Positions 1 through 47,224 of a stretch of DNA of 64,000 bases are shown piece by piece. The translations under genes and the position numbers were made by a program. The stretch is from NCBI RefSeq assembly GCF_044324875.1, contig NZ_CP172185.1; one strand, given 5' to 3'. Positions within the stretch are counted from its first letter, which is position 1; every line of letters starts with the position of its first letter. Source of the DNA: Escherichia coli (lineage in GTDB: Bacteria > Pseudomonadota > Gammaproteobacteria > Enterobacterales > Enterobacteriaceae). The notes under the pieces are model-generated. The model had not been told where the DNA came from, did no database searches, and saw only the letters and a program-made list of their open reading frames with translations.

Positions 1-313
1 CGGTTTCCTCGCCGTAAACAGCCGTTTCAATGCTTCAGGTGATGGCGTGGCGCAACTGGGCCGCTCGCTGGATGTTGATGCTAATACCAACGGTCAGGTG
101 GTGATCCGTGATAGTGCCATCAACGAAGGTTTTAACACGGCGAAACCGTGGGCCGATGCGGTGATTTCCAATCGTCCGTTTGCGGGTAACACCGGCAGCG
201 TTGATGATAACGACGAAGTACAGCGTAATCTGAATGACACTAACTACAACCGCATGTGGGAATACAATAACCGCGGCGTGGGTAGCAAAGTGGTTGCAGA
301 GGCGAAGAAGTAA
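1..313 (+). CDS. ybhC: C-terminal fragment of a gene running in from upstream of the window; by position (convergent with ybhJ) likely ybhC, a pectinesterase-like lipoprotein
   Basis: Track ORF 47..313 is the in-frame tail of an ORF open to the window edge. Identity is from K-12 synteny only; I do not recognise the residues themselves. Confidence 0.5.
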   Translation, partial: GFLAVNSRFNASGDGVAQLGRSLDVDANTNGQVVIRDSAINEGFNTAKPWADAVISNRPFAGNTGSVDDNDEVQRNLNDTNYNRMWEYNNRGVGSKVVAEAKK

Positions 314-384
314 AAAAGAAAACCCGATAGTCTGAACCATCGGGTTAATGAAACTGGGCGCTATATTTCATAGCGCCTTTTTTT
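312..384. terminator. Two adjacent hairpins (aacccgat..atcgggtt and gggcgctat..atagcgcc) flanked by A/T runs; convergent terminators for ybhC and ybhJ
   Basis: Inverted repeats with U-runs on each strand, read directly from the sequence between two convergent genes. Confidence 0.5.
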
Positions 385-2644
385 ACATCTGACGGTTTTT
401 ATTGAAGTTAATCAAACTACCCGCCTTGATAATCTCGCGCTCTTCAGCAGTCAGACTTTCCATATAGAGCGTAATCTCTGTTACTGGCGCATCTTCATGG
501 ATCACATAACCCTTAAACGTCGTACCCGGATTATCCAGCGCCGCTTTAATGCCAGGGATGTAAATGTAATCCCCCACTTCAAACGTTGGTGCTTCCGCCA
601 TCTGCAGCGGTAACATCCCCCAGTTGATGACGTTAGAACGGTAGCGTTTAGTCGCGTACTCCTCGGCAATATTCGCCAGACCGCCAATCACACGCTGGCA
701 GCTCGCCGCCTGCTCACGCGCAGAACCATCGCCTGGTTTCACCGCATAGACCATGCTGCCAATTTCAGTTTGCAGCGGATCAATATGCTCCTGACCAGCA
801 ATCTGCTTAATGCGCGCAAACACCTCTGTCAGCTCGCTGACATTCCCCGCCAGACGCTGATTTTCCAGCTCAGCAGTCACTTTACTTCTGCCAACATAAC
901 CGGGATCGCGGCGTGACAGGGTAAACTCCGCCAGACCAATCGGATTTGAACGATAAGAAGAGGTTTCACCGGAAGGGATCAGTTCGTCGGTGGTGGTCAC
1001 TTCGTCGAGGATCTTCGAGCACACTTTGAGGACGATATTGTCAGTCAGCGCCCCCAATTCCGGCCAGTCTTTAATGTTCGGTCCGTAAATCAGCGGTTGC
1101 TGAGTTGCCCCTTTCACAAAGCCCTGATAAACACGGTTTTTATACGGCGTTACATCGAAGGCGTACTCCGGCACGTTGTCCCAGCAATCGAGTTCGCTGG
1201 CAGAAGTTAAATAGCCACCGTTTGCCGCAGTCGCAGCGATAGAACGAGCGTCCATCAACGCCACCGCTGACATCTGCCCATTGGCTGGCTTAGAGCCTTC
1301 GCGGTTCGGGAAGTTACGCGTGGTGTGGCGAATACTCAAACCGTTGTTGATTGGCGTATCGCCCGCGCCAAAGCATGGGCCGCAGAACGCGGTTCTGATG
1401 ATTGCGCCTGCGCCAATCAAATCTGCTACCACACCTTTTTTGGCGAGATCCATAAACACCGGCTGTGATGACGGGTAAACCGCTAACGAGAAGGTGTCAT
1501 TGCCACAGGATTGACCGCGCAGTGCATTCGCCGCCGCGATGACGTTTTCGTAGTTACCGCCAGAACAGCCCGCGATAATCCCCTGCTGCACTTTCAGGCG
1601 ACCATTTTCCACTTTATCCAGCAGCGAGAGTTTGGCTTTACCGTGCGCCACGCGTTCGGACTCAATTTCAATCTCACGCAGAATGTCGGTCAGGTTCTGG
1701 TTCAGCGTGTCGATTTCATACACGTTGCTCGGGTGAAACGGCAGCGCAATCATTGGTTTGATGGCGCTTAAATCAACGCTGATGCAGCCATCGTAGTACG
1801 CCATCGGTTGAGGGTTAAGCTGGCAGTAATCCTGGCCGCGACCGTGCAGCGCCAGCCAGTTATGGACTTCTTCATCGGTTTGCCAGACAGAACTTAAACA
1901 GGTCGTTTCAGTGGTCATAACGTCAACGCTGTTACGGAAATCGGTAGAGAGCGCAGCAACACCGGGACCTACGAATTCCATCACTTTGTTTTTGACGTAG
2001 CCGTTTTTGAACACGGCACCGATGATAGCCAGCGCCACATCCTGTGGCCCCACATACGGCGCTGGTTTTCCGGTCAGATGCACCGCAACAACTCCCGGAT
2101 AGTCGATATCCCAGGTGTCATTAAGCAATTGTTTTACCAACTCGCCGCCGCCCTCACCGACTGCCATTGTCCCTAATGCACCGTAACGGGTGTGGCTGTC
2201 TGACCCGAGGATCATTTTGCCGCCGCCTGCCATCATCTCACGCATATATTGATGGATGACCGCAATATGCGGAGGCACAAAAATACCGCCATAACGCTGC
2301 GCTGCCGATAAACCAAAAACATGGTCATCACCGTTAATGGTGCCGCCGACGGCGCAAAGTGAGTTATGGCAGTTGGTCAGCACATACGGCAGCGGGAAAC
2401 GTTCCATACCGGACGCTTTAGCAGTCTGTACAATCCCAACAAAGGTAATATCGTGAGAGGCTAATGAATTAAACTTAATTTTAAGTTTATCCATATTTCC
2501 GGACGTATTATGAGAAGAGAGAATAGACCAGGCAATAGTGCCTTTTTTGGCTTCTTCTTTTTTAATTTCGCCGGTGAAATGTTCTTCGGCAATTATTTCG
2601 TTATTACTGGCGAGAAACACGCCTTTTTCAGATAACTTGATCAT
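383..2644 (-). CDS. ybhJ: Aconitase-family putative hydratase (753 aa from the ATG; the track ORF starts at an upstream GTG)
   Basis: 761-aa ORF with aconitase-like Cys/Gly-rich motifs; length from the internal Met (MIKLSEKG) matches K-12 YbhJ; synteny. Confidence 0.85.
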
Positions 2645-2826
2645 CAAATGCTCCAGATATCTGCGCACCGAGAAGTGCGCAGAAAGATAATAAATGGATA
2701 TACTCTAAATAATTAGAGTTGCAGGAAGGCGACTAGCGAGTGAATCCCCAGGCGCTTACATAAGTAAGTGACTGGGGTGAGCGAACGCAGACGCAGCACA
2801 TGCAACTTGAAGTATGACGAGTATAT

Positions 2827-4260
2827 TTACAGCATGTTCCAGCCGATCAGCATATTCCACCACCACACACCGAGGGTGATATGTACCAGGAAGGTTAATA
2901 TCGTCAGTACCGCACCGACCAACCACCAGGATTTAATATCGTTGTAACCCACGCCAAAGATGACCGGACCTGCCGCGCCGCCATAGTGAGTAACCATGCC
3001 GCCATAGGAGTTGGAGAACAACAGTGCCAGCGCGGTTAACATTAACGGTGCGCCGGAGACGTTCGCCAGCATGGCAAATACCGGTAACATAGCAACGATA
3101 TAGGCACTACCGGAAGCGAAGAAATAACGAACGATGATGCTGAGGAAAATAATAACGAAGAAAGCAACGTTACCGTGACCATCAAATGCCAGGTTATTTT
3201 TAAAGACTTCAGCTAACCATTCGAAGAATTTAACTTTCGATAATAAGGAGCTTAAGCCGATAATACCGCCGTACCAGATTAAGGTATTCCAGCCGCCTTT
3301 ATTTTTAACCACGTCTTCCCAGGTAACGATACCCAGCAGCAGCATAGTCGCCATAACAACGATTGCCACGGTGGATTCATCAACCCCCAGTGACTTACTG
3401 AAAATCCAGCCCAGCAGCGCCAGCACGAAGACACCGAGCAGCATTTTTTCGCGGATTTTCATCGGTCCCAGTTCGGCAAGGCCCGCTTTGGCGATAGTTT
3501 TGTTATCCACCTTCTTAATTTCTGGCGGATACATGGTGTAAATCACCAGCGGGGTGACCAGCAGCATAATGATACCCGGCAATCCGGCGGCCAGCGCCCA
3601 TCCACCCCAGCTAATTTGCAGGTGCAGAATGTCGTTGATCATTTTCAGCGCCAGAATGTTCCCCGCCATTGCGGTAAAGAACATATAGCTGGTGGTTTTG
3701 GTGACCATGTAAATGGACATCATCAGGTAATGTCCGACACGACGCGGGCTTTTTTCAGGTTCTGACCCCAAAGCCACCGCCACGCTGTTGATGATCGGTA
3801 ACACAATGCCGCCCGCACGCGCGGTGTTAGACGGTGTTGCCGGAGCCAGTACCAGATCGAGAAATACCGTAACGTAACCCAGGCCCAGGGTAGTGCTACC
3901 AATTTTACCAATCAGCAAATAGGCAATACGTTTACCTAAGCCGGTGGTCACAAATGCGGCGCTTAAGGTAAACGCCGAGAACACCAGCCAGGTGGTACCT
4001 GAAGAGTAACCGCTTAATACGGCGGTGGTTTTAAACGCACCGTCGGATAAGTTACCGACCACCACCATGGAGGCAGCAACGGCAATTAACAGTACGACAG
4101 GTTCCGGGAAAGGCTTGATAACCAGCCCCACAATGGCCGCCAGGTAAATACCAAAAAGCACCCACGCCAGTTCGCTTAATCCTGCCGGAGCTGGCATAAA
4201 GCCAATAATACATGGGATCGCTAATATCAGAATTAGCTTCCATAACGATTTTTTATTCAT
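2827..4260 (-). CDS. ybhI: DASS-family anion/tricarboxylate transporter
   Basis: 477-aa polytopic membrane protein; length and position match K-12 ybhI. Confidence 0.85.
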   Translation of the reverse strand: MNKKSLWKLILILAIPCIIGFMPAPAGLSELAWVLFGIYLAAIVGLVIKPFPEPVVLLIAVAASMVVVGNLSDGAFKTTAVLSGYSSGTTWLVFSAFTLSAAFVTTGLGKRIAYLLIGKIGSTTLGLGYVTVFLDLVLAPATPSNTARAGGIVLPIINSVAVALGSEPEKSPRRVGHYLMMSIYMVTKTTSYMFFTAMAGNILALKMINDILHLQISWGGWALAAGLPGIIMLLVTPLVIYTMYPPEIKKVDNKTIAKAGLAELGPMKIREKMLLGVFVLALLGWIFSKSLGVDESTVAIVVMATMLLLGIVTWEDVVKNKGGWNTLIWYGGIIGLSSLLSKVKFFEWLAEVFKNNLAFDGHGNVAFFVIIFLSIIVRYFFASGSAYIVAMLPVFAMLANVSGAPLMLTALALLFSNSYGGMVTHYGGAAGPVIFGVGYNDIKSWWLVGAVLTILTFLVHITLGVWWWNMLIGWNML

Positions 4261-4335
4261 TTAAAATCCTGTTCTTTCTGTATGACTCATACAGAAGTCC
4301 TTTATTGATTGTCCTTATCCTGACAACGAATTTTT

Positions 4336-5388
4336 TCAGGGAAGAAAAACTTCACCGGAAAATATTTTTCTGGTTGTCCGAATAACAGATGCGCGTAACG
4401 TCGTGGCATCCTGACCTTCATTACTTAAATGAACGTCGAGCGCACCACTGGGGTGTTCAATATTGATATTGCCGTATCCTACAGAAGGGACGATTTGTCG
4501 GGTGACGGTGCCTTCCAATGCACAACTACTGGAAATGGCAATAGCACCGGTTATCGCCAGCGCGCGATGGCAAGAATGCGGCATAAAATAACGCACATTA
4601 ATTGCTCCGCCTTTCTGCGCTGGAGAAATAAGCACAGGTTTAGGGATAACCATATTACTGACATCGCCTAATCCCATTGCTTTACCCGCTTGTAGACGGA
4701 TAGATTCAATGCGGGCTAATAATGCTTTGTCGGCATCCAGCTCCGCCGGTAATTCATAGCCTGTTTTTCCCAGATATTCAGCAGGAATAATGACAACTGG
4801 CATCGCCATATCGATACAGGTCACCGGGACATCGTCAAAATAATCAATCTGATTATCAGTCGGGAAGATTTTTCCGGTTTTGGTTCCGGCGGCATTCAGG
4901 AAAGTGAGCGCAACCGGTGCGGCAGTACCCGGTACGCCGTCAATTCTGGCGCTACCCTCGTACTCGACAACACCATTTGGCGTTTGCACATCAGCTTCGA
5001 TGAACGTACCCGTATTGACGTTGCGGATACGTACGCGGGTAACTGGCGAAGTCGCTGCAATCAAACCATTTTCAATGGCGAATGCCCCAACCCCAGACAA
5101 CATATTGCCGCAGTTTGGTGTTGTATCGACACGCTGCTCATGGACAATAACCTGAGCAAACAGATAATCGACATCAGCACGCGGATCGTCGGAATGGCTA
5201 ATAATGGCGACTTTACTGGTCAGCGGATTACCGCCGCCAATACCGTCAATTTCCAGATCGTTACCGGAACCCATAATTGCCATCAATATTTTATCGCGCT
5301 GCGTTTGATCTTCGGGTAGATGTTCCGCTAACAGGAACGCGCCCCTCGAGGTTCCCCCTCTCATCATCACGCAGGGTATTTTTTTCAT
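4336..5388 (-). CDS. ybhH: PrpF/AcnD-accessory-like isomerase family protein
   Basis: 350-aa ORF; length and synteny match K-12 ybhH. Confidence 0.8.
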   Translation of the reverse strand: MKKIPCVMMRGGTSRGAFLLAEHLPEDQTQRDKILMAIMGSGNDLEIDGIGGGNPLTSKVAIISHSDDPRADVDYLFAQVIVHEQRVDTTPNCGNMLSGVGAFAIENGLIAATSPVTRVRIRNVNTGTFIEADVQTPNGVVEYEGSARIDGVPGTAAPVALTFLNAAGTKTGKIFPTDNQIDYFDDVPVTCIDMAMPVVIIPAEYLGKTGYELPAELDADKALLARIESIRLQAGKAMGLGDVSNMVIPKPVLISPAQKGGAINVRYFMPHSCHRALAITGAIAISSSCALEGTVTRQIVPSVGYGNINIEHPSGALDVHLSNEGQDATTLRASVIRTTRKIFSGEVFLP

Positions 5389-5571
5389 AATAATGCCCTC
5401 AATTTAAAAACATAACTTATTGCGATATGGTTACATTAAGGGCAAAGCATCTCTAATGACTTTAGCTCAACGATTAATAACATTTTTTCATTAATTTAAG
5501 TTAGCTAAATGCAGTTAAAATTTTTAACGGCCAGTCACCCAAAATCGACGCTTCCATTTTCCGGAGTAATA

Positions 5572-6525
5572 ATGAAGCATGAATTATCAAGTATGAAGGC
5601 ATTTGTCATACTGGCAGAGTCCAGTTCATTTAACAATGCCGCTAAATTACTCAATATTACGCAACCTGCATTAACGCGAAGAATAAAAAAGATGGAGGAA
5701 GATTTACATATCCAACTATTTGAGCGTACAACTCGCAAGGTTACGTTAACAAAAGCAGGAAAAAGATTGCTCCCGGAGGCGCGGGAATTAATAAAGAAAT
5801 TCGATGAAACGCTTTTTAATATTCGTGATATGAATGCTTATCATCGTGGTATGGTGACATTAGCGTGTATTCCGACCGCAGTATTTTATTTTTTACCGCT
5901 GGCAATCGGTAAATTTAATGAGCTTTATCCCAATATTAAAGTGCGGATTCTGGAACAAGGTACGAATAATTGCATGGAATCGGTGCTGTGTAACGAATCA
6001 GACTTTGGCATAAACATGAACAACGTCACAAATTCATCCATCGATTTTACCCCCCTGGTCAACGAGCCGTTCGTGCTGGCCTGTCGGCGTGACCATCCAT
6101 TGGCCAAAAAGCAGCTTGTAGAATGGCAGGAGTTAGTGGGTTACAAAATGATTGGCGTACGCTCCTCCAGCGGCAACCGACTGTTGATAGAACAACAGCT
6201 GGCCGACAAGCCCTGGAAGCTGGACTGGTTTTACGAAGTGCGTCATCTTTCGACGTCATTAGGACTGGTGGAGGCGGGACTGGGAATTTCGGCGCTTCCT
6301 GGTCTGGCAATGCCCCATGCACCCTATTCTTCGATTATTGGTATCCCGCTGGTGGAACCGGTTATACGTCGAACATTGGGGATTATTCGCCGCAAAGATG
6401 CCGTGCTTTCTCCGGCAGCTGAACGCTTTTTTGCCTTGCTGATTAATTTGTGGACTGACGATAAAGACAATTTGTGGACCAATATCGTCGAACGCCAGAG
6501 ACATGCGTTACAGGAGATAGGTTAA
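5572..6525 (+). CDS. ybhD: LysR-family transcriptional regulator, divergent from ybhH
   Basis: N-terminal HTH (FNNAAKLLNITQPALTRRIKKMEE); start placed at the internal ATG at 5572 to give 317 aa as in K-12. Confidence 0.8.
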   Translation: MKHELSSMKAFVILAESSSFNNAAKLLNITQPALTRRIKKMEEDLHIQLFERTTRKVTLTKAGKRLLPEARELIKKFDETLFNIRDMNAYHRGMVTLACIPTAVFYFLPLAIGKFNELYPNIKVRILEQGTNNCMESVLCNESDFGINMNNVTNSSIDFTPLVNEPFVLACRRDHPLAKKQLVEWQELVGYKMIGVRSSSGNRLLIEQQLADKPWKLDWFYEVRHLSTSLGLVEAGLGISALPGLAMPHAPYSSIIGIPLVEPVIRRTLGIIRRKDAVLSPAAERFFALLINLWTDDKDNLWTNIVERQRHALQEIG

Positions 6526-6565
6526 TACACCGGCGCAGAAGAGACTGCGCCGGGTAAATCAGCGG

Positions 6566-7597
<1,032 letters not shown>

Positions 7598-37147: not shown

Positions 37148-37597
37148 ATGAAGAAAGCAACACTTGTGATTGGCGTTATTGGCGCGGACTGCCATGCAGT
37201 AGGCAATAAAGTTCTGGACCGCGTTTTTAGCAACCATGGCTTCAGAGTCATTAATCTGGGCGTAATGGTCAGCCAGGACGAATATATTGATGCTGCCATT
37301 GAAACTGGTGCTGACGCGATTGTCGTCTCCTCTATCTATGGGCATGGCGATATCGATTGTCTGGGCATGCGCGAACGCTGCATTGAGCGTGGGCTGGGTA
37401 ACATCCTGCTCTATGTGGGCGGTAACCTGGTGGTCGGAAAACATGACTTCGCTGACGTGGAAACCAAGTTCAAAGAGATGGGATTTGATCGCGTCTTTGC
37501 CCCAAGTCATGACTTAGAAGATGTTTGTCAGCTGATGGCCCACGATATCAACCAACGTCATGACGTTGATACTCGCATTCTTGAAGAGGCAATCTGA
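37148..37597 (+). CDS. glmS: Glutamate mutase (methylaspartate mutase) S subunit, B12-binding
   Basis: B12-binding motif (GADCHAVG) and strong resemblance to clostridial GlmS/MutS; start at the ATG at 37148 (149 aa). Confidence 0.85.
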
Positions 37598-38985
37598 TGC
37601 AAATCGTCTCTGTCGATATTGGATCGACGTGGACCAAAGCAGCCCTCTTCGCCCGGGAGGGGGACGCGTTAACGTTGGTTAACCACGTACTGACCCCAAC
37701 CACCACCCATCATCTGGCGAAGGGTTTTTTCTCCAGCCTGAACCTGGTGTTAAACGTAGATAATGCCCTCCCCCTGTTTAACAACGGTGAGGTTGCATTG
37801 AAGTATTCCTCCTCTGCCAAAGGTGGGCTGGCGGTTGCCGCAATGGGGTTGGTGCCATCTATCACCCTGGAAACCGCGAAAGTAACCGCTCACTCTGCGG
37901 GGGCTAAAATTGCGCAATATTACGCCTACAAGCTGAACCGCCGTGATATCCAGGCACTGGAAGAAACGCAGCCCGATATTCTCTTGTTCACCGGCGGCAC
38001 CGACGGCGGAGAAGAAAGCTACGGCCTGAATAACGCCCGTGTGCTGGCAGAATCCAAACTCGACTGCGCCATTATTTATGCCGGAAACCGGGATATTCAG
38101 GACGAGGTGCAGGAGATCCTAGGGCATAAAGACCTGACCATCGTCGACAACGTTCTGCCCGATCTTGACCATCCGAACCCTTTAGCTGCACGCCAGGCTA
38201 TCTGCGACATATTCCTTAAACGCATCGTTAAAGGGAAAGGGCTGGATGTCATTGTTGATAAAACAGGCGAAGAACCAATGCCGACACCATGGACGGTCTT
38301 TGAACTGGTTAAGGCAATCAGTAACGTCGATCACAGCTGGAAAGAGTTCATGCTGATCGACATGGGCGGCGCAACCACCGATGTCTATTCAGCCTGTGCC
38401 AACACGCTCTCGCCCGACACCGTTTTACACGGCGTACCGGAACCCTTCGTGAAACGGACGGTGGAAGGCGATCTGGGAATGCGCGTCTCGGCAATGGTGG
38501 TTGGTGAAAGTGCGAAAGAGTTAGTCAATGTGAATTTTGCTCAGCAACCCGCACAGCTGGACGCTTTTTATCATTACCTCCGTCATCTAGTCGCTCATCC
38601 CGACTACTTACCCGCGAATGTAGAAGAAAAATATTTCGATACCGTCCTGGCCGGACTGTGTGTGGGTTATGCCACCGAAAGACATGCGGGCACCAAAAAA
38701 GAGGTCTGCACCTGCGTCGGCAATGTCGATTTACAGATGGGACGTGACCTGACAACCGTGCGTAAAGTCGTCGGATCCGGCGGATGGCTCTCGCGTGCCA
38801 GTCAGTTCGATATGCATCACTGGTTGAAATACCGCGAGTTAAACGACGACGGTAAACGCATTCTCTTACCGACCGAATTTGAATATTACCGCGATTCCCG
38901 GGGGCTATTACCACTGCTGGCAAACGTCGCCAGAGTCGATCCGCTGGCCGCCGCGCGCACCAGTATTCAATGCTTAACCCTATAA
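37597..38985 (+). CDS. glmL: Glutamate mutase-associated protein L (MutL/GlmL)
   Basis: 462 aa; start overlaps the glmS stop (TGATG); position between S and E subunits as in clostridial operons. Confidence 0.75.
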   Translation: MQIVSVDIGSTWTKAALFAREGDALTLVNHVLTPTTTHHLAKGFFSSLNLVLNVDNALPLFNNGEVALKYSSSAKGGLAVAAMGLVPSITLETAKVTAHSAGAKIAQYYAYKLNRRDIQALEETQPDILLFTGGTDGGEESYGLNNARVLAESKLDCAIIYAGNRDIQDEVQEILGHKDLTIVDNVLPDLDHPNPLAARQAICDIFLKRIVKGKGLDVIVDKTGEEPMPTPWTVFELVKAISNVDHSWKEFMLIDMGGATTDVYSACANTLSPDTVLHGVPEPFVKRTVEGDLGMRVSAMVVGESAKELVNVNFAQQPAQLDAFYHYLRHLVAHPDYLPANVEEKYFDTVLAGLCVGYATERHAGTKKEVCTCVGNVDLQMGRDLTTVRKVVGSGGWLSRASQFDMHHWLKYRELNDDGKRILLPTEFEYYRDSRGLLPLLANVARVDPLAAARTSIQCLTL

Positions 38986-39003
38986 CAATTAAGGCTGCAA
39001 TCA

Positions 39004-40449
39004 ATGGAACTTCGAAATAAGAAATTAACCCATGACGAATTCATGACCGAGCGGCAACAGGTACTGAAAACCTGGGAAACCGGCAAGGATGTTGAAAACT
39101 TTGAAGATGGCGTTAAATACCAACAAACCATTCCTGAGCATAAACGCTTCTCTCTTGTGCTGTTGAAAGCAGACAAGGAAGGTAAAACCCTTAGCCAACC
39201 GCGCGCAGGTGTGGCGCTGATGGACGAACACATCGAACTACTGAAAACACTACAAGAAGAGTGCGATCTGCTGCCGAGCACTATCGATGCATATACCCGT
39301 CTGAATCGGTACGAAGAAGCGGCTGTAGGGATTAAAAAATCCATCGAAGCCGGAACCTCTAAACTGAACGGTTTACCGGTCGTTAACCACGGCGTCGCAG
39401 CTTGCCGTCGCCTCACCGAAACTTTGCAAAAACCGCTACAGATCCGCCACGGCACGCCAGATGCGCGTCTGCTGGCTGAAATCTCGATGTCCAGCGGCTT
39501 TACCAGTTATGAAGGCGGCGGCATTTCCTACAATATTCCGTATGCCAAGCGCGTAACGCTGGAAAAATCGATCCGCGACTGGCAGTACTGCGACCGTTTA
39601 ATGGGGATGTATGAAGAACACGGGATCCGCATCAACCGCGAACCGTTTGGCCCACTAACGGGTACGCTGATCCCGCCGTTTATCTCGCACTCTATCGCGA
39701 TAATCGAAGGCTTGCTGGCGCTGGAACAGGGTGTGAAATCTATCACCGTTGGTTATGGACAGGTCGGCAGCCTGACGCAGGATGTTGCGGCGATCCAGTC
39801 TCTGCGTGAACTTGCACACGAATATTTTCAGAGCTATGGCTATACCGACTATGAATTAAGTACCGTGTTTCACCAGTGGATGGGCGGCTTTCCGGAAGAC
39901 GAATCGAAAGCGTTCGCTATTATCTCCTGGGGCGCAGCCGTCGCGGGGATGTCTGGTGCCACCAAAGTCATCACCAAAAGTCCGCACGAAGCCTGGGGTA
40001 TCCCGACTGCCGCTGCCAACATTCAGGGGCTGAAAGCCTCCCGCCAGATGCTCAACATGGTCAACGAGCAGAAATTCCCGCCGTGCCCTGCGGTTGAACT
40101 GGAAATTGAACTGATTAAGAGCGAGGTTCGCGCGGTACTGAATAAAGTGTTCGAACTGGGTAATGGTGATATTGCGCGCGGTACGGTGCTGGCATTTGAA
40201 GCGGGCGTACTGGATGTGCCGTTTGCGCCAGCCGCCTGCAACGCGGGCAAAATTCTTCCGGTCCGTGACAACACCGGCGCGATACGCGTACTGGAAGCCG
40301 GAGCCGTTCCATTGCCAAAAGATATTCTCGACCTCCACCACGATTACGTTGCGGAACGCGCACGCTTTGAAGGACGCCAACCGACATTCCAGATGGTTGT
40401 AGATGACATCAATGCTGTATCCCACAGTAAATTAATAGGAAGACCATAA
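39004..40449 (+). CDS. glmE: Glutamate mutase (methylaspartate mutase) E subunit
   Basis: 481 aa; extended similarity to clostridial GlmE (LPSTIDAYTR, GGGISYN, TVFHQWMGGFP, FQMVVDDI). Confidence 0.88.
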   Translation: MELRNKKLTHDEFMTERQQVLKTWETGKDVENFEDGVKYQQTIPEHKRFSLVLLKADKEGKTLSQPRAGVALMDEHIELLKTLQEECDLLPSTIDAYTRLNRYEEAAVGIKKSIEAGTSKLNGLPVVNHGVAACRRLTETLQKPLQIRHGTPDARLLAEISMSSGFTSYEGGGISYNIPYAKRVTLEKSIRDWQYCDRLMGMYEEHGIRINREPFGPLTGTLIPPFISHSIAIIEGLLALEQGVKSITVGYGQVGSLTQDVAAIQSLRELAHEYFQSYGYTDYELSTVFHQWMGGFPEDESKAFAIISWGAAVAGMSGATKVITKSPHEAWGIPTAAANIQGLKASRQMLNMVNEQKFPPCPAVELEIELIKSEVRAVLNKVFELGNGDIARGTVLAFEAGVLDVPFAPAACNAGKILPVRDNTGAIRVLEAGAVPLPKDILDLHHDYVAERARFEGRQPTFQMVVDDINAVSHSKLIGRP

Positions 40450-41690
40450 TGAAAATAAAACAGGCTCTGTTCACCGCTGGCTACTCCTCATTCTATTTCG
40501 ATGACCAGCAGGCGATAAAAAACGGAGCGGGTCACGACGGTTTTTTTTATACCGGGGAGCCGGTAACACAGGGGTTTAACGCCGTTCGTCAGGCCGGGGA
40601 GTGCGTATCGGTACAGTTGATTCTGGAAAACGGCGCGGTCGCCGTAGGTGACTGTGCTGCCGTACAGTATTCCGGGGCAGGTGGTCGCGATCCACTGTTC
40701 CTCGCAGAGCACTTTATTCCGTTCCTCAACGACCATATCAAGCCATTACTGGTAGGCCGCGATGTGGATGCTTTCCTGCCGAATGCCCGTTTCTTCGACA
40801 AATTGCGTATTGACGGCAACTTGCTGCATACCGCCGTGCGCTACGGATTATCACAGGCGCTGCTTGATGCTACCGCGCTGGCAACCGGCCGTCTGAAAAC
40901 TGAAGTGGTCTGTGATGAATGGCAGTTGCCACGCGTGGCGGAATCCATTCCATTATTTGGTCAGAGCGGCGACGATCGATATATCGCCGTCGATAAGATG
41001 ATCCTTAAGGGCATCGACGTGCTGCCCCATGCGCTGATTAATAACGTCGAAGAGAAGCTGGGCTTTAAAGGTGAAAAACTGCGCGAATATGTCCGCTGGC
41101 TGTCGGATCGTATTCTGAGCAAGCGCACCAGCGCACGCTACCACCCTACCCTGCACATCGATGTATACGGCACTATCGGTCTGATCTTCGATATGGATCC
41201 GCTTCGCTGTGCGCAATACATCGCCAGCCTGGAAAAAGAAGCGCAAGGCCTGCCGCTCTACATTGAAGGGCCGGTCGATGCTGGTAACAAGCCCGATCAA
41301 ATTCGCCTGCTGACCGCGATTACCAAAGAGCTGACACGCCTCGGTTCCGGCGTGAAAATTGTGGCCGATGAATGGTGTAACACCTACCAGGATATTGTTG
41401 ATTTCACAGATGCCGCCAGTTGCCACATGGTGCAAATCAAAACCCCGGATCTGGGCAGTATTCACAACATCGTCGATGCAGTTCTTTATTGCAACAGCCA
41501 CAGCATGGAAGCGTACCAGGGCGGCACCTGCAATGAAACTGATGTCAGTGCCCGCACCTGTGTCCACGTCGCCCTTGCCGCTCGCCCCATGCGTATGCTG
41601 GTAAAACCAGGGATGGGCTTTGACGAAGGCCTCGATATCGTCTTCAACGAAATGAATCGTACTATCGCGCTGTTGCAGGCTAAGGATTAA
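40449..41690 (+). CDS. mal: 3-methylaspartate ammonia-lyase
   Basis: 413 aa, enolase-superfamily-like; start overlaps the glmE stop (TAATG); typical MAL length. Confidence 0.8.
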   Translation: MKIKQALFTAGYSSFYFDDQQAIKNGAGHDGFFYTGEPVTQGFNAVRQAGECVSVQLILENGAVAVGDCAAVQYSGAGGRDPLFLAEHFIPFLNDHIKPLLVGRDVDAFLPNARFFDKLRIDGNLLHTAVRYGLSQALLDATALATGRLKTEVVCDEWQLPRVAESIPLFGQSGDDRYIAVDKMILKGIDVLPHALINNVEEKLGFKGEKLREYVRWLSDRILSKRTSARYHPTLHIDVYGTIGLIFDMDPLRCAQYIASLEKEAQGLPLYIEGPVDAGNKPDQIRLLTAITKELTRLGSGVKIVADEWCNTYQDIVDFTDAASCHMVQIKTPDLGSIHNIVDAVLYCNSHSMEAYQGGTCNETDVSARTCVHVALAARPMRMLVKPGMGFDEGLDIVFNEMNRTIALLQAKD

Positions 41691-41693
41691 CAA

Positions 41694-43064
41694 ATGGCTC
41701 GTTCTTTTAAAGTCTTATCGCCAACGGCAATCCTCGGGTATGGATTCCCGGAAGAGAGCTTCCGTAAAGCGATGGCAGAATCGCCCGATCTGATCGCCGT
41801 TGATGCAGGCTCTTCCGATCCAGGCCCCCACTACCTCGGGGCAGGCAAACCGTTTACCGATCGCGCAGGGGTCAAGCGCGATCTGCGCTATATGATCACC
41901 GCAGGCGTGCAAAATAATATACCGGTGGTGATCGGAACGGCTGGCGGTTCTGGTGCCGCACCACACCTGGAGTGGTGCCGAGAAATAATTCATGAGATTG
42001 CCCGGGAAGAGCAACTCGCGTTCTCGATGGCGCTGATCCCGGCAGACGTTGACAAAGCCATCGTCCACCAGGCGCTGGATAACGGCAAAATCACGGCGCT
42101 GGATTTTGTCCCGCCGTTAACCCACGACGCGATTGACGAAAGTACGTATATCGTCGCGCAAATGGGCATCGAACCCTTCCAGCGGGCGCTGAAAGAAGGC
42201 GCGCAAGTGGTGCTGGGCGGGCGCGCTTACGACCCGGCCTGCTTTGCTGCGCTACCGATCATGCAAGGCTTTGATGAAGGTCTGGCGCTGCATTGTGGGA
42301 AAATCCTTGAATGCGCGGCAATCGCCGCAACGCCCGGCTCAGGCTCTGACTGTGCGATGGGCATCATTGATGACAACGGCTTTACGCTGAAGACATTTAA
42401 TCCGAAGCGTAAATTTACCGAAACGTCAGCGGCTGCACACACACTGTATGAGAAATCCGATCCCTACTTCCTGCCTGGACCTGGCGGCGTGTTGAACCTG
42501 AAAGGCTGCACATTTAAAGCGGTCAATGACGGCGAAGTGTACGTCAGCGGTTCTAAGTATGAAGAAACGCCGTATTCCCTGAAACTGGAAGGTGCGCGAC
42601 GGGTGGGCTTCCGCTGTCTGACCATCGCAGGAACGCGCGACCCGATCATGATCGCCGGGATCGATAAAATCATTGATGAAGTCAAAACCAGCGTTTCGCG
42701 TAACCTGTCGCTCGACGATGACAGTATTCACATCAATTTCCACCTGTACGGCAAAAACGGGGTGATGGGCGACCATGAACCGATGCAAACTGCCGGGCAT
42801 GAGCTGGGGATTGTCCTTGATGTAGTTGCACCGACCCAGGAAATTGCCAATAGCGTTTGCTCGCTGGTGCGCTCTACCATGCTGCACTACGGCTATGAAA
42901 ACCGCATCGCTACCGCAGGTAATCTGGCGTTCCCGTTCTCCCCTTCTGATATCCAGGGCGGGCCGGTATACGAATTTTCCATATATCACCTGATTGAAGC
43001 CAACGACGCTCTGCGTTTTGATTTCCATATTGAACAGGTGACGCCAGAAGGAGTTCAGGCATGA
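41694..43064 (+). CDS. Conserved protein of unknown function, resembling the DUF1446 (AtuA-like) family
   Basis: 456-aa ORF starting 4 nt after the mal stop; family assignment from memory, not searched. Confidence 0.6.
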   Translation: MARSFKVLSPTAILGYGFPEESFRKAMAESPDLIAVDAGSSDPGPHYLGAGKPFTDRAGVKRDLRYMITAGVQNNIPVVIGTAGGSGAAPHLEWCREIIHEIAREEQLAFSMALIPADVDKAIVHQALDNGKITALDFVPPLTHDAIDESTYIVAQMGIEPFQRALKEGAQVVLGGRAYDPACFAALPIMQGFDEGLALHCGKILECAAIAATPGSGSDCAMGIIDDNGFTLKTFNPKRKFTETSAAAHTLYEKSDPYFLPGPGGVLNLKGCTFKAVNDGEVYVSGSKYEETPYSLKLEGARRVGFRCLTIAGTRDPIMIAGIDKIIDEVKTSVSRNLSLDDDSIHINFHLYGKNGVMGDHEPMQTAGHELGIVLDVVAPTQEIANSVCSLVRSTMLHYGYENRIATAGNLAFPFSPSDIQGGPVYEFSIYHLIEANDALRFDFHIEQVTPEGVQA

Positions 43065-43378
43065 AACAGTCAATTGTCTCACTGGCGCAAGTCATTCGTT
43101 CGAAAAATGCCGGACCTTACGAACTGGTTTTAGATATTTTATTTAAAACCAAAGAAAACTATGAGCGAGTTAAATCATCAGGGCAATTAACCCCAGAACT
43201 GATTGCGCGCTTATATCATGTTGAACCTGACTTTATTCATCGTATTGTCTGGTTTGATCCTTCTAACGCAGTAAAAATCGTCATGCCACGAGATATTATC
43301 TCCGGGAATGTAGGTGACAATGATGTCTATGGTGCACAGCAACATGCACCTTTATTAAATATGAGTTTCGATTTGTAA
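43061..43378 (+). CDS. Small conserved protein of unknown function (105 aa), likely the DUF4387-type partner
   Basis: ATGA overlap with the preceding gene; size and pairing typical of DUF1446/DUF4387 gene pairs as I recall them. Confidence 0.55.
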   Translation: MKQSIVSLAQVIRSKNAGPYELVLDILFKTKENYERVKSSGQLTPELIARLYHVEPDFIHRIVWFDPSNAVKIVMPRDIISGNVGDNDVYGAQQHAPLLNMSFDL

Positions 43379-43461
43379 AAATCCGAATACTTTTAGCCAA
43401 CTGACATCCCGTCACTTATTGCAGTTCAACACTTCAGCTATTTGTAAGGTTGTAATAGCAG

Positions 43462-43493
43462 GTAGATGCCTGAATCTCTATTCAGACATCTAC
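43462..43493 (+). terminator. Strong hairpin (gtagatg-ctgaat…attcag-catctac) with partial U-tract, between the DUF pair and the transporter
   Basis: 13-bp stem with one mismatch followed by ttctcctgattctgattt; seen directly. Confidence 0.45.
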
Positions 43494-43538
43494 TTCTCCT
43501 GATTCTGATTTATCGCCGTGCACCTGATGGAGGAAAAA

Positions 43539-44819
43539 ATGAAGAAAATAAGTTTAACCACGATGATTCTTTTGGCACTGGTACTTGGAATGATTATCGG
43601 CGTAGTGCTCAATAACACTGCTTCACCGGAAACCGCAAAACTCTATGCGCAAGAAATATCGATATTCACGACGATTTTCTTACGACTGATAAAAATGATT
43701 ATCGCTCCGTTAGTGGTCTCTACCCTGGTGGTAGGTATAGCTAAAATGGGCGATGCCAAAGCCCTTGGTCGTATTTTTTCTAAAACACTCTTTTTATTTA
43801 TTTGCGCCTCATTGCTGTCAATTGCCTTAGGCTTGATAACAGTAAATTTCTTCATGCCAGGCACAGGAATTAATTTTGTTGCACACGGAGCCGAAACCAC
43901 CGGAGTGGTCGCGTCAGAACCCTTTACGCTAAAAGTATTTATTTCGCATGCTTTCCCCACCAGCATTGTCGATGCCATGGCGCACAATGAAATTTTGCAA
44001 ATCGTAGTGTTCTCAATTTTCCTCGGCTGTAGCCTGACGGCGATTGGCGAGAAAGGCAGCGCCATCGTTCACGCCTTAGATTCGCTGGCACATGCCATGT
44101 TAAAGCTCACTGGCTACGTCATGCTCTTCGCTCCCCTGACCGTATTCGCCGCTATTTCAGCATTGATTGCTGAACGAGGACTGGCAGTTATGGTGAGCGC
44201 CGGGATCTTTATGGGTGAATTTTATTTCACCATGTTGTTACTTTGGGTGCTGCTTATCGGTCTGGCCATCGTTTATGTCGGCCCCTGCATCAGACGCCTG
44301 ACCCGCGCCCTTTCGGAACCCGCTCTGCTGGCATTTACCACATCCAGTTCTGAAGCGGCTTTTCCGGGAACGCTTGAAAAACTGGAGCAATTTGGCGTTT
44401 CCCCCAAAATTGCCAGCTTTGTCTTACCCATTGGCTACTCATTTAATCTCGTTGGATCAATGGCCTACTGCTCCTTCGCCACAGTTTTCATCGCCCAGGC
44501 CTGCAATATCCATTTATCCATCGGTGAGCAAATCACCATGCTGTTGATCCTGATGTTGACCTCGAAAGGAATGGCTGGCGTACCACGCGCCTCAATGGTG
44601 GTTATCGCCGCCACGCTCAACCAGTTCAATATTCCGGAAGCGGGGCTGATCTTGCTGATGGGCGTTGATCCGTTCCTTGATATGGGGCGTTCCGCGACAA
44701 ACGTCATGAGCAACGCAATGGGCGCTGCGATGGTGAGTCGGTGGGAAGGCGAACATTTCGGCGAGGGTTGTCGGGGTAAAGCATTAAAACCCAATGAATC
44801 GAACGTTGCTCTGCCCTGA
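43539..44819 (+). CDS. Dicarboxylate/amino-acid:cation symporter (GltP/DctA-like)
   Basis: Polytopic membrane protein with DAACS-like motifs; GGAGG RBS before the ATG at 43539 (426 aa). Confidence 0.8.
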   Translation: MKKISLTTMILLALVLGMIIGVVLNNTASPETAKLYAQEISIFTTIFLRLIKMIIAPLVVSTLVVGIAKMGDAKALGRIFSKTLFLFICASLLSIALGLITVNFFMPGTGINFVAHGAETTGVVASEPFTLKVFISHAFPTSIVDAMAHNEILQIVVFSIFLGCSLTAIGEKGSAIVHALDSLAHAMLKLTGYVMLFAPLTVFAAISALIAERGLAVMVSAGIFMGEFYFTMLLLWVLLIGLAIVYVGPCIRRLTRALSEPALLAFTTSSSEAAFPGTLEKLEQFGVSPKIASFVLPIGYSFNLVGSMAYCSFATVFIAQACNIHLSIGEQITMLLILMLTSKGMAGVPRASMVVIAATLNQFNIPEAGLILLMGVDPFLDMGRSATNVMSNAMGAAMVSRWEGEHFGEGCRGKALKPNESNVALP

Positions 44820-44926
44820 GGGGGATCTTAAGCAATCAGAAGCCAATGACTACGCATTTTTATAAGCCGGATCATGAAGTTAGACGGCAATTAAGTAACA
44901 CTAACGTTTAAGGTGAAAAGTGAAAT

Positions 44927-46579
44927 ATGTCCAAACCATTTATCTGGCAAGAACCGTTTCTACAAAATAAAGACGGTACAGAATATACATTAATTAGCGA
45001 TCAACATATTACAGTAACGGAATTAGACGGCGAAGAAGTGATAAAAATCGCTCCTGAAGCATTAACGCTGCTTGCCCGGCAGGCATTTTATGAAGCCTCT
45101 TTTTTCTTACGTTCCGCTCATTTGCAACAGGTCGCCAGCATTCTTAACGATCCGCAGGCCAGTAGTAATGATAAATACGTTGCGTTGCAGTTATTACGTA
45201 ATGCTGAAGTCTCAGCAAAAGGGGTATTACCCAACTGTCAGGATACCGGCACCGCAACTATTGTTGCCAGTAAAGGGCAACAGATATGGACGGGAGGTAA
45301 CGACGCTGAAGCCTTAAGCAAAGGCATTTACAGTACTTTCCAGGAAAATAATCTGCGCTTTTCACAAAATGCGCCGCTGGATATGTATACCGAAGTCAAT
45401 ACGCAAACCAATCTCCCGGCGCAGATTGATATCAGCGCTGTCGCTGGTAATGAGTACCATTTTCTCTGTGTTAATAAAGGGGGCGGCTCCGCCAATAAAG
45501 CCGCACTTTATCAGGAAACCAAATCCTTATTGCAACCAGAAAAACTGACCGCATTTTTAATCGAAAAAATGAAATCGCTGGGCACCGCTGCCTGCCCGCC
45601 TTACCACATCGCCTTTGTCGTCGGAGGGCTTTCAGCCGATCAAACCTTAAAAGTTGCCAAGCTGGCCTCTACGAAATATTACGACAATTTGCCCACCAGC
45701 GGAAACGAGCAGGGACAAGCATTCCGTGATATTGAGCTGGAAAAAGTGTTGCTCGAGGTCAGTCAGCAATTTGGTATTGGTGCGCAATTTGGGGGTAAAT
45801 ATTTCGCTCATGATATTCGCGTCATTCGTCTGCCGCGTCACGGTGGCTCTTGCCCGATAGCTATGACGCTCTCCTGTTCTGCCGATCGCAATATCAAAGC
45901 AAAAATTAACAAGCACGGTATCTGGCTGGAAAAACTCGAACACAATCCGGGGCAATATATTCCAGCCTCACTGCGGGAAGAAAATCACGCGCAACATGTA
46001 CAACTGGATCTAAACCGTCCGTTGCGTGACGTGATGCAGGATCTCGCCAGATTACCGGTAGGCACCCGCGTGTCGTTAAGTGGTCCCATCGTAGTGGCAC
46101 GCGATATCGCCCACGCCAAAATAAAAGCGCGGCTGGATAACGCCGAACCGATGCCGGATTACCTGAAGCATCATATTGTCTATTACGCTGGCCCGGCGAA
46201 AACACCGGAGAACATGGCCTGCGGTTCACTGGGTCCAACCACGGGCGGTCGAATGGACGGTTATGTCGATACCTTCCAGGCGGCTGGCGGCAGTCTGGTG
46301 ATGTTATCGAAAGGTAACCGCAGCCAGCAGGTCACCGATGCCTGTCACAAACATGGTGGCTTCAATCTGGGTAGTATTGGCGGTGCAGCTGCGTTACTGG
46401 CGCAAGAATATGTCAAAAGTCTGCGTTGCCTGGAATACCCGGAGCTGGGTATGGAAGCGGTGTGGATGATGGAAGTGGAAAATCTGCCCGCATTCATCCT
46501 GGTAGATGATAAAGGCAATAATTTCTTTAGTCAGTTTGAGCAGCAACACCGCTGCGCCAGTTGCCCTGCGGGACATTAA
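44927..46579 (+). CDS. fumD: Class I (Fe-S) fumarate hydratase paralogue; FumD-type mesaconase/fumarase
   Basis: 550 aa, alignable by eye with FumA along the whole length; clustering with glutamate mutase and methylaspartase matches published FumD. Confidence 0.8.
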
Positions 46580-46588
46580 GGAAAATGA

Positions 46589-47191
46589 ATGGAAGCGCGA
46601 ATTTCAACTGAACGGCATGTGCAGCGCCAGCAGAAATTGAAGGAACAGGTCGATACGCGCATCGCGGCGGCGATAGAGAAAAAAGGGATTTTGATTGTTT
46701 TCACCGGCAATGGCAAAGGGAAATCCACTGCCGCGTTTGGTACTGTGACGCGCGCGGTGGGTCATGGCAAAACGGTGGGGGTTGCGCAGTACATCAAGGG
46801 GCAATGGGACAACGGCGAATACAACCTTCTCCAGCCGCTGGGGGTTGAGTTTCATATTATGGGAACCGGTTTTACCTGGGAGACACAGAACCGGCAAGCG
46901 GATATCGACGCGGCGAAAGAGGTCTGGTCGGAAAGCAAACGGATGCTGGCTGACAAGCGTTACGACTTAGTGGTGCTTGATGAGCTGACCTATATGCTGG
47001 CTTACCATTATCTGGATACCGAAGAAGTGATCGCTTCTCTGCAAAACCGCCCGGCACAACAAAGTGTCATTGTCACCGGACGCGGTTGCCACAGTCAGAT
47101 ATTAAAAATGGCGGATACGGTCAGCGAAATCCGCCCCGTCAAACATGCTTTTGATAACGGCATTCAGGCCCAGCCGGGTATCGACTGGTAA
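46589..47191 (+). CDS. Cob(I)alamin/cob(I)yrinic acid a,c-diamide adenosyltransferase paralogue (BtuR/CobO-like)
   Basis: 200 aa; P-loop (GNGKGKSTAAFG) and close resemblance to E. coli BtuR. Confidence 0.85.
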   Translation: MEARISTERHVQRQQKLKEQVDTRIAAAIEKKGILIVFTGNGKGKSTAAFGTVTRAVGHGKTVGVAQYIKGQWDNGEYNLLQPLGVEFHIMGTGFTWETQNRQADIDAAKEVWSESKRMLADKRYDLVVLDELTYMLAYHYLDTEEVIASLQNRPAQQSVIVTGRGCHSQILKMADTVSEIRPVKHAFDNGIQAQPGIDW

Positions 47192-47194
47192 TAA

Positions 47195-47221
47195 CTGCGC
47201 CTGGCATCCCGCCAGGCGCAG
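47195..47221. terminator. Bidirectional hairpin (ctgcgcctggc…gccaggcgcag) between convergent cobO-like and LysR genes
   Basis: 11-bp perfect stem followed by gtttta; seen directly. Confidence 0.6.
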
Positions 47222-47224
47222 GTT

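Follow-up and report, generated by a model that had tools for sequence, protein, structure and literature searches.

The ybhD-ybhHIJ cassette of Escherichia coli raises a simple question: which compound do its four products handle? We examined the cassette in a 64,000-nucleotide stretch of E. coli DNA (RefSeq assembly GCF_044324875.1, contig NZ_CP172185.1), hereafter called the window. The initial annotation, made from the letters of this DNA, had placed the cassette at positions 383-6525, limits that run exactly from the stop codon of ybhJ to that of ybhD, and had read it as a LysR regulator gene divergent from genes for an isomerase, a transporter and a hydratase. Open reading frames (ORFs), Pfam, NCBIfam and RefSeq agree with these gene identities and with this layout. 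The features of the cassette are as follows.

383..2644 (ORF 383-2668, probable start at 2644), minus strand: ybhJ, 753 aa, aconitase family, [4Fe-4S] hydro-lyase
2827-4260, minus strand: ybhI, 477 aa, DASS-family di/tricarboxylate transporter
4336-5388, minus strand: ybhH, 350 aa, PrpF-family allylic isomerase
5389..5571, unstranded: divergent control region of ybhD and ybhH, a 183-bp AT-rich spacer
5473..5495, unstranded: ATTAAT-N11-ATTAAT dyad, a LysR-type T-N11-A box and probable YbhD operator
5572..6525 (ORF 5509-6525, annotated start at 5572), plus strand: ybhD, 317 aa, LysR-type regulator

With somewhat better than even confidence, we propose that ybhHIJ is a YbhD-repressed operon that would channel external trans-aconitate, or several aconitate isomers together, into citrate metabolism. 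Aconitate itself, taken up in its trans form, is the probable substrate. The initial annotation had suggested the uptake, isomerisation and hydration of an unsaturated di- or tricarboxylate; the tricarboxylate part of this suggestion holds and can be sharpened to aconitate, while the unknown C5/C6 acid that it had envisaged is not supported.

In the proposed mechanism, YbhD would bind the ATTAAT-N11-ATTAAT dyad in the control region and keep ybhHIJ switched off; repression has been observed, and the dyad is the predicted operator. An aconitate-type inducer would lift this repression. YbhI, a member of the CitT/DiT exchanger group of the DASS family, would bring in the tricarboxylate and probably send out a dicarboxylate in return. 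YbhH would use Lys59 and Cys93 to carry out a 1,3-proton shift converting trans-aconitate to cis-aconitate, as suggested by orthologues with 62-64% identity that seem to have been assayed. Identical active-site residues and operon contexts suggest that YbhJ would hydrate cis-aconitate to citrate or isocitrate, and these products could enter the tricarboxylic acid (TCA) cycle or, under anaerobic conditions, be passed to citrate lyase. Speculatively, the operon may carry its own aconitase because trans-aconitate inhibits the housekeeping aconitases and because AcnA and AcnB are low in the anaerobic gut.

The cassette is best classed as a putative trans-aconitate system like that of the tar genes of Bacillus velezensis, to which an anaerobe-type aconitase has been added. 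In a bolder version of the proposal, to which we give slightly less than even credence, the core genome of E. coli and its relatives would encode a third true aconitase of a distinct Cys-for-Asp100 subclass. This enzyme, which shares about 70% identity with the housekeeping aconitase of gut Firmicutes and Coriobacteriia, would work with a LigU-like aconitate isomerase and a DASS exchanger in a gut route devoted to plant-derived trans-aconitate.

YbhJ belongs to an aconitase family of gut anaerobes

YbhJ matched the Pfam domain PF00330 (294.9 bits, cut-off 28.7), the C-terminal swivel domain Aconitase_C (PF00694; 28.4 bits, cut-off 22.8) and, over ORF residues 9-761, the NCBIfam model PRK11413 (1537 bits). 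Its cluster ligands C360, C421 and C424 align with Cys358, Cys421 and Cys424 of pig aconitase, and the catalytic residues H93, H131, D149-S150-H151, E246 and S641 correspond to His101, His147, Asp165-Ser166-His167, Glu262 and Ser642. Also kept are R443, R448, R565 and R643, the counterparts of the four substrate-binding arginines (Arg447, 452, 580 and 644) that hold three carboxylates, which bears out the earlier label 'tricarboxylate-type'. Asp568 of aconitase is likewise kept across the YbhJ family.

By sequence, YbhJ has both domains, the three Fe-S cysteines, the catalytic residues listed above (though not Asp100) and the four arginines in common with the mitochondrial, PRK07229-type, AcnA and AcnB aconitases. 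It differs from the classical enzymes in its weak overall similarity (to mitochondrial aconitase, 122 bits with the single sequence and 176 bits with the family profile; to the 650-aa PRK07229-type bacterial aconitase, ~27% identity), in additional N-terminal and internal segments, and at seven positions that are changed across the YbhJ family: Gln72 is replaced by His, Asp100 by Cys, Asn170 by Tyr, Asn258 by Val, Asn446 by Thr, Ser571 by Ile and Ser643 by Ala.

Relatives of YbhJ were collected by scanning one genome per species with an alignment of the YbhJ family, which yielded at least 599. A search of representatives at 50% identity had returned mainly fragments and understated the size of the family, and was corrected by the genome scan. 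The relatives come mostly from gut anaerobes, the best from Lachnospiraceae, Collinsella, Megasphaera, Acidaminococcus and Ellagibacter, among others. E. coli YbhJ is 66-72% identical over ~760 aa to the gut-anaerobe proteins, as against 76% to the YbhJ of Klebsiella, and the enterobacterial YbhJ clade is sister to the anaerobe clade in a neighbour-joining tree. At the active-site positions checked, 75 of 82 sequences, E. coli YbhJ included, were mutually identical at 22 of 22.

ORFs were called and clustered in the loci of the relatives, and recurrent neighbours were annotated by Pfam. In L013, L014, L020, L021, L029 and L030 the aconitase gene is followed by those for citrate synthase and isocitrate dehydrogenase, only 3-55 bp apart; L033 and L087 have the same genes in a divergent layout. 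In other loci (L015, L036, L077 and L088) the YbhJ-type gene abuts citDEF, which encodes citrate lyase; citDEF lies ~2 kb upstream in L011. Most simply, many anaerobes would rely on the YbhJ family for their working aconitase, and YbhJ would retain that chemistry.

Several side observations concern the same family. Residue 92 of YbhJ (window ~2369-2371, minus strand), in the motif TNCHNSLC, is a conserved extra cysteine near the cluster. Four full-length YbhJ-like proteins with 34-39% identity (P0148, P0154, P0216 and P0232 in alignment A2) lack the Fe-S cysteines and the Asp-Ser-His motif and are probably non-catalytic relatives. In many E. coli database entries (P0029, P0036-P0057) YbhJ has a length of only 634-648 aa, against 753 aa here, which may reflect a lineage-specific truncation or differing start calls. 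Some anaerobe loci (L008 199-10202, L035 8567-15872 and L019 4741-12432) bring together, under LysR control, a canonical aconitase of 655-680 aa, a divergent YbhJ paralogue, a PrpF-like isomerase and an Iso_dh-family dehydrogenase of 385-407 aa. The divergent paralogue of the L008/L035-type loci is 40-48% identical to YbhJ and has Pro at the Gln72 position and Ser at Ser643. An RraA-like aldolase gene is present in L035 and L019; L019 is without a PrpF gene, and the aconitase encoded there (762 aa) shares 69% identity with YbhJ and shows the standard residue pattern of the YbhJ family. These loci look like a separate tricarboxylate pathway. Finally, the ybhJ transcript is raised 18-fold in co-culture with Chlamydomonas.

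YbhH resembles probable aconitate isomerases

YbhH matched PF04303 with 554 bits, and its K59 and C93 align with K66 and C100 of LigU, which are reported to be catalytic in that enzyme. A crystal structure of YbhH is available as PDB 6OTV under the title 'putative isomerase YbhH'. Identity is 34-39% to the PrpF-like genes of the Firmicute loci and rises to 62-64% with proteins of Pseudomonas, Dickeya, Pantoea and Azotobacter. In the corresponding modules (L089, L091 and L092) a LysR gene on the minus strand precedes the isomerase gene, which is followed in Pseudomonas by genes for SDF and CitMHS transporters and an OprD porin, in Dickeya by MFS, FAH-family and citCDEF genes (where the available locus sequence ends), and in Pantoea by MFS, FAH-family and citCDEFXG genes. 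Since the LysR proteins (54-58% identical to YbhD), the operator box and the isomerases (62-64%) are shared, regulator, operator and isomerase form one conserved unit. Varying transporters and downstream enzymes around such a unit are the pattern that would be expected for the same substrate and a product in central metabolism.

Trans-aconitate assimilation in B. velezensis depends on tarR, a divergent LysR gene, tarA, encoding a PrpF-superfamily aconitate isomerase, and tarB, encoding an MFS importer, and 16 TarA homologues from trans-aconitate-using isolates were assayed in the same study (PMC11495376). The enzymes AI-7-1, AI-16-1, AI-32-1 and AI-41-1 had 88-101% of the forward aconitate isomerase activity of TarA, and PrpF-proper paralogues (MAHVPQV...VPGDSF) had 2-4% (PMC11495376). 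The published primers for these four enzymes encode the N-terminus QRIPCV(L) and the C-termini FRRLAG, LRRLAG or AQRLAG (PMC11495376), which agree with the termini MQRIPCVL...SQRLAG of the YbhH-like group of Pseudomonas. No match within 3 mismatches was found when the primers were sought as DNA in the Pseudomonas locus; the comparison at the protein level did match, and the start of the L089 isomerase gene showed only synonymous differences from the published primers. The four assayed Pseudomonas enzymes therefore appear to be orthologues of YbhH (62-63% identity). In addition, the published homologue table lists holders of tarA at ~40% identity that include Shigella, Escherichia albertii, E. 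fergusonii, Edwardsiella, Klebsiella and Citrobacter (PMC11495376), and isolates of Enterobacter, Citrobacter and Providencia assimilate trans-aconitate.

YbhD represses ybhH, and YbhI resembles citrate and dicarboxylate exchangers

YbhD has the N-terminal HTH_1 and C-terminal LysR_substrate domains of a LysR-type protein. In a published study, deletion of ybhD strongly raised ybhH in RNA-seq, i.e. ybhH was derepressed, and one ChIP-exo site was reported for YbhD (PMC9068703). The same study found that Nac controls ybhHI and that the ybhD deletion has an L-malate-dependent growth phenotype, and suggested no substrate beyond 'malate-related' (PMC9068703). From the deletion data we conclude that YbhD is a repressor of ybhH(IJ), with repression of ybhH as the measured effect.

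The ATTAAT-N11-ATTAAT sequence at 5473-5495 is a perfect dyad that occurs once in the 64-kb window, against a chance expectation of 0. Exact copies are present in the spacers between LysR and PrpF genes in E. albertii and Dickeya dadantii, and the spacers of Citrobacter and Edwardsiella carry one-base variants. The spacer between ybhD and ybhH also shares conserved blocks with its counterparts in E. albertii, Citrobacter, Edwardsiella and Dickeya. This pattern points to the dyad as the probable YbhD operator.

YbhI is a full-length match to TIGR00785 (553 bits, cut-off 199) and scored 648 bits with PF00939, which places it in the DASS family. With CitT, the citrate:succinate antiporter of E. 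coli, it shares 33% identity (E=7e-85), and its nearest solved structures are the plant dicarboxylate transporters DiT1/DiT2 and the bacterial DASS-family protein 6WTW. We propose that YbhI is an importer, and probably an exchanger.

The cassette is intact, conserved and mobile as a unit

In the closest genome in RefSeq, ybhJ, ybhI, ybhH and ybhD are annotated at equal offsets. The Pfam scores (Aconitase, 295 bits; Na_sulph_symp, 648 bits; PrpF, 554 bits), like those for HTH_1 and LysR_substrate, lie far above the curated cut-offs. The ybhD ORF overshoots the annotated start by 21 codons (5509-5571) and the ybhJ ORF by 8 codons (2645-2668); family models and RefSeq favour the shorter starts at 5572 and 2644.

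Positions 1-7000 of the window were matched in 5425 of 5426 complete E. coli genomes, with at least 80% of that stretch found in 5316, in agreement with the earlier description of the cassette as core DNA. Relative to E. albertii, the ratio of nonsynonymous to synonymous substitutions (dN/dS) was 0.024-0.045 for the four genes, all of which are intact and under strong purifying selection. We conclude from these values that the genes are upheld by selection, and decay of ybhDHIJ was rejected on the same ground (dN/dS of 0.02-0.05). In Klebsiella aerogenes and Edwardsiella hoshinae the whole set of four is found elsewhere on the chromosome, at unrelated sites, so the cassette travels as a unit. 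In K. aerogenes (L001 8683-9945, 14016-22286) an extra CitMHS transporter gene lies between ybhI and ybhJ, and a few genes away are a sensor kinase/response regulator pair, oadGAB-type genes, a 2HCT-family transporter gene and a citC-like gene, a gene content that suggests a citrate-fermentation (cit/oad) locus. The ybhD-ybhHIJ cassette is a real, intact, core E. coli cassette. In line with the initial annotation, none of 39 papers that mention ybhJ or ybhH gives it a substrate or function, and the NCBIfam product name for YbhJ was still 'hydratase' in June 2026.

As a side observation, the top identity of positions 1-7000 among the 5426 genomes was only 98.9%, with nearly all genomes in the 95-99% band, suggesting that the lineage of the window is poorly represented among complete E. 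coli genomes.

Comparison with related systems

Like tarR-tarA-tarB (PMC11495376), the cassette has a divergent LysR gene and an operon that opens with a PrpF-superfamily isomerase gene followed by a transporter gene. TarA is ~40% identical to the YbhH of Shigella and Escherichia in the published homologue table, and short palindromic hexamers serve as operator elements in tar (TTATAA) and probably in ybh (ATTAAT). The two systems differ in that YbhI is a DASS protein whereas the tar transporter belongs to the MFS, in that ybh adds a third gene for a dedicated aconitase, and in that TarR is an activator, unlike YbhD, which behaves as a repressor.

The Pseudomonas, Dickeya and Pantoea modules (L089-L092) resemble the cassette in their isomerase (62-64%) and regulator (54-58%), and the exact operator box is shared with Dickeya. 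In contrast to ybh, their transporters are SDF and CitMHS with OprD, or MFS, none of them has an aconitase gene, and in Dickeya and Pantoea the modules continue with an FAH-family gene and genes for citrate lyase (citCDEF and citCDEFXG, respectively).

Points against the proposal and alternative explanations

Several points weigh against aconitate as the substrate. We found no enzyme assay or growth test of the E. coli proteins in the literature. Trans-aconitate use in Pseudomonas, Dickeya and Bacillus needs no dedicated aconitase, which leaves the presence of YbhJ unexplained. Engineered E. coli W3110 accumulates trans-aconitate, up to 12.9 g/L among the figures considered, and such a build-up implies a native system without efficient removal under aerobic glucose conditions. 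A profile alignment to 1ACO made with HMMER, together with a residue table, showed that C92 of YbhJ stands in the place of Asp100, the partner of the catalytic His101, and that this position is Cys across the whole YbhJ family. Blank, Green and Guest (2002) reportedly saw no change in the residual aconitase activity of an acnAB mutant when ybhJ was inactivated, a result that could also reflect repression by YbhD. YbhJ was later called a 'catalytically inactive paralog' with reference to Blank et al. 2002, in a study in which the ybhJ deletion was H2O2-sensitive and low in NADPH (PMC4054840). The orthology of the assayed Pseudomonas enzymes with the YbhH-like group was drawn from primer-encoded termini, not from full sequences. 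AI-79 of Providencia rettgeri, whose C-terminus GDVYVP is like that of enterobacterial YbhH, had <1% aconitate isomerase activity (PMC11495376); its construct begins at RGGTSK and is N-terminally truncated, lacking the first conserved strand. Lastly, YbhH is 46% identical to LigU and, at 515 bits, exceeds the cut-off of 440 bits of the NCBIfam model NF033377 ('4-oxalomesaconate tautomerase').

The last two scores, together with the aligned Lys and Cys, also favour an alternative in which YbhH shifts the double bond and YbhJ hydrates another aconitate-like tricarboxylate, such as 4-oxalomesaconate or other ring-cleavage products, 2-methylaconitate/2-methylcitrate, homoaconitate/homocitrate or hydroxycitrate. 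We regard this alternative as unlikely. YbhH and LigU/GalD belong to one fold family, and the reaction of LigU/GalD is the same 1,3-allylic shift as that proposed for YbhH; the LigU substrate, (4E)-oxalomesaconate, is a tricarboxylate one carbonyl away from trans-aconitate, with one carboxyl of the latter swapped for an oxalyl group. However, NF033377 was run on window positions 4336-5388, P0362, P0352, P0380 and LigU, and gave nearly equal scores (515-541 bits, with LigU at 541, the Pseudomonas protein at 528 and YbhH at 515) to LigU and to proteins whose gene contexts suggest an aconitate isomerase, a role for which the Pseudomonas group also has inferred enzyme assays. Since the model does not separate the two activities, the RefSeq product name '4-oxalomesaconate tautomerase' is no evidence for oxalomesaconate; for YbhH it is doubtful and probably over-propagated. 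Moreover, no ring-cleavage dioxygenase, OMA/KCH hydratase (LigJ/GalB) or CHA aldolase (LigK/GalC) gene was found in the window flanks or in the Klebsiella, Edwardsiella, Pseudomonas, Dickeya and Pantoea loci, the last three of which hold the 62-64% homologues, so a gallate/protocatechuate lower pathway was rejected. Pairs of a PrpF-type isomerase and an aconitase-type enzyme are known, among them Mii/DmdAB for dimethylmaleate. AcnD and PrpF of the Shewanella 2-methylcitrate pathway are a further such pair, an aconitase-family dehydratase and an isomerase acting on an aconitate-type double bond of methylaconitate (PMC5690661). For the cassette, though, the AcnD and PrpF equivalog models scored far under their cut-offs (TIGR02333, 63 vs 1420 bits; TIGR02334, 185 vs 441 bits), there are no prpB or prpC neighbours, and the transporter and dedicated regulator point to an external substrate; a methylcitrate function of the AcnD/PrpF type was rejected. 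The family-specific changes of YbhJ at Gln72, Asp100 and Ser643 could speak for a different tricarboxylate, but they are common to the proteins in citrate synthase-isocitrate dehydrogenase operons. Similarly, some Firmicute loci combine a YbhJ paralogue with PrpF, Iso_dh and an RraA-like aldolase, but these paralogues form a distant subgroup (40-48% identity) with a different residue pattern.

Three other explanations have lower probability. That the operon is cryptic, with YbhJ a non-catalytic paralogue in a stress or regulatory role and the operon without a carbon-source function, would fit the label of inactivity and the H2O2-sensitive, low-NADPH deletion phenotype (PMC4054840), the lack of any known growth phenotype on organic acids and the loss of cluster cysteines in some distant YbhJ relatives. 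We consider it improbable, as the cluster residues of YbhJ and, Asp100 apart, its catalytic residues are intact, dN/dS is 0.02-0.05 in the four genes and these move jointly between genomic sites. The label itself is said to derive solely from a knockout experiment in which, with the operon under YbhD repression, residual aconitase activity did not change. Still less probable as the substrate is an unsaturated C5 dicarboxylate, namely itaconate, mesaconate or citraconate, with a possible tie to a methylaspartate-pathway island in the same window. The PrpF-family enzyme Mii is reported to interconvert itaconate and citraconate weakly, and is the third-best structural family match of YbhH (3G7K, 228 bits). 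Aconitase-family enzymes hydrate citraconate, as judged from the isopropylmalate/citramalate isomerase matches, the nearest solved relatives of YbhI transport dicarboxylates, and the growth phenotype of the ybhD deletion depends on L-malate (PMC9068703). Against this, YbhJ keeps all four arginines for binding three carboxylates, Arg580 among them, it agrees at the 22 checked positions with the proteins of citrate/isocitrate operons, and no CoA-transferase, lyase or citramalate-cleaving gene was found near the cassette in the window. The island (37597-48130) encodes a MutL-like protein, the glutamate mutase E chain (GlmE), methylaspartate ammonia-lyase, an AtuA-like protein, an SDF transporter, a class-I fumarase-like hydratase, a corrinoid adenosyltransferase and a LysR regulator, and sits between cydA (32779-34350) and the suc genes, the latter called from ORF sizes and gene order only. 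It lies >30 kb from the cassette, has its own hydratase and LysR gene, and is absent from most contexts that hold the cassette, which is unchanged in species and contexts without it. Nothing was found that connects the two, so cross-talk was rejected, and with it the earlier idea that the cassette could intersect with the mesaconate and citramalate of this accessory block. Slighter again is the chance that the pathway runs in reverse, with YbhJ converting citrate to cis-aconitate, YbhH forming trans-aconitate and YbhI exporting it, as in the tbrA-tbrB system of Bacillus thuringiensis. A dedicated aconitase would suit such a supply role, trans-aconitate is produced by Enterobacter, Citrobacter and Providencia isolates, and aconitate isomerases are reversible, with the transporter said to set the direction (PMC11495376, PMC13188880). 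On the other hand, the nearest DASS relatives of YbhI are exchangers, and CitT, 33% identical to YbhI, is annotated as a citrate:succinate antiporter. CitT imports citrate. The orthologous isomerase genes of Dickeya and Pantoea precede genes for citrate lyase, a catabolic enzyme, the Pseudomonas isomerase is paired with an OprD-type uptake porin, and trans-aconitate formation from unmodified E. coli required a foreign isomerase and exporter.

If the trans-aconitate proposal is correct, four conserved y-genes of E. coli K-12 would gain a function and E. coli a third aconitase, and an aconitase subclass with an NCHN motif (Cys for Asp100), apparently the working enzyme of many gut anaerobes, would be defined. 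The name '4-oxalomesaconate tautomerase', spread over thousands of genomes, would be wrong for the YbhH clade, and the RefSeq name would need correction. Grasses, maize and sugar cane are rich in trans-aconitate, an aconitase inhibitor, so an enteric pathway for it would bear on herbivore gut ecology. In E. coli engineered for trans-aconitate, ybhHIJ might be a hidden sink or source. Aconitate as the answer would hardly surprise specialists; what the proposal offers is a specific hypothesis for four E. coli genes.

Repeat element and flanking sequences

Two further features of the locus are as follows, the repeat being no part of the proposed pathway.

2698..2826, unstranded: ERIC/IRU repeat, filling the ybhI-ybhJ spacer
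356..378, unstranded: hairpin at the convergent ybhC-ybhJ junction, terminator-like on both strands by consensus match alone

The 182-bp gap between ybhI and ybhJ is explained by the ERIC/IRU insertion, which is specific to Escherichia, and an own promoter or attenuator was rejected as its cause. This imperfect palindrome of 129 bp, of which E. coli genomes carry a median of 4 copies, contains at 2762-2783 an exact match to the ERIC2 primer sequence. It is common to the window and E. albertii, in which the ORF-to-ORF spacer measures 158 bp, and is absent in Citrobacter and Edwardsiella, with spacers of 32 and 43 bp, respectively.

The window opens with the 3′ end of ybhC on the plus strand (up to 313), and pgl lies beyond ybhD at the other flank. 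The convergent ybhC and ybhJ genes are parted by the hairpin at 356-378, which has a 9-bp stem with 5 G-C pairs and is followed by a T-run on the plus strand.

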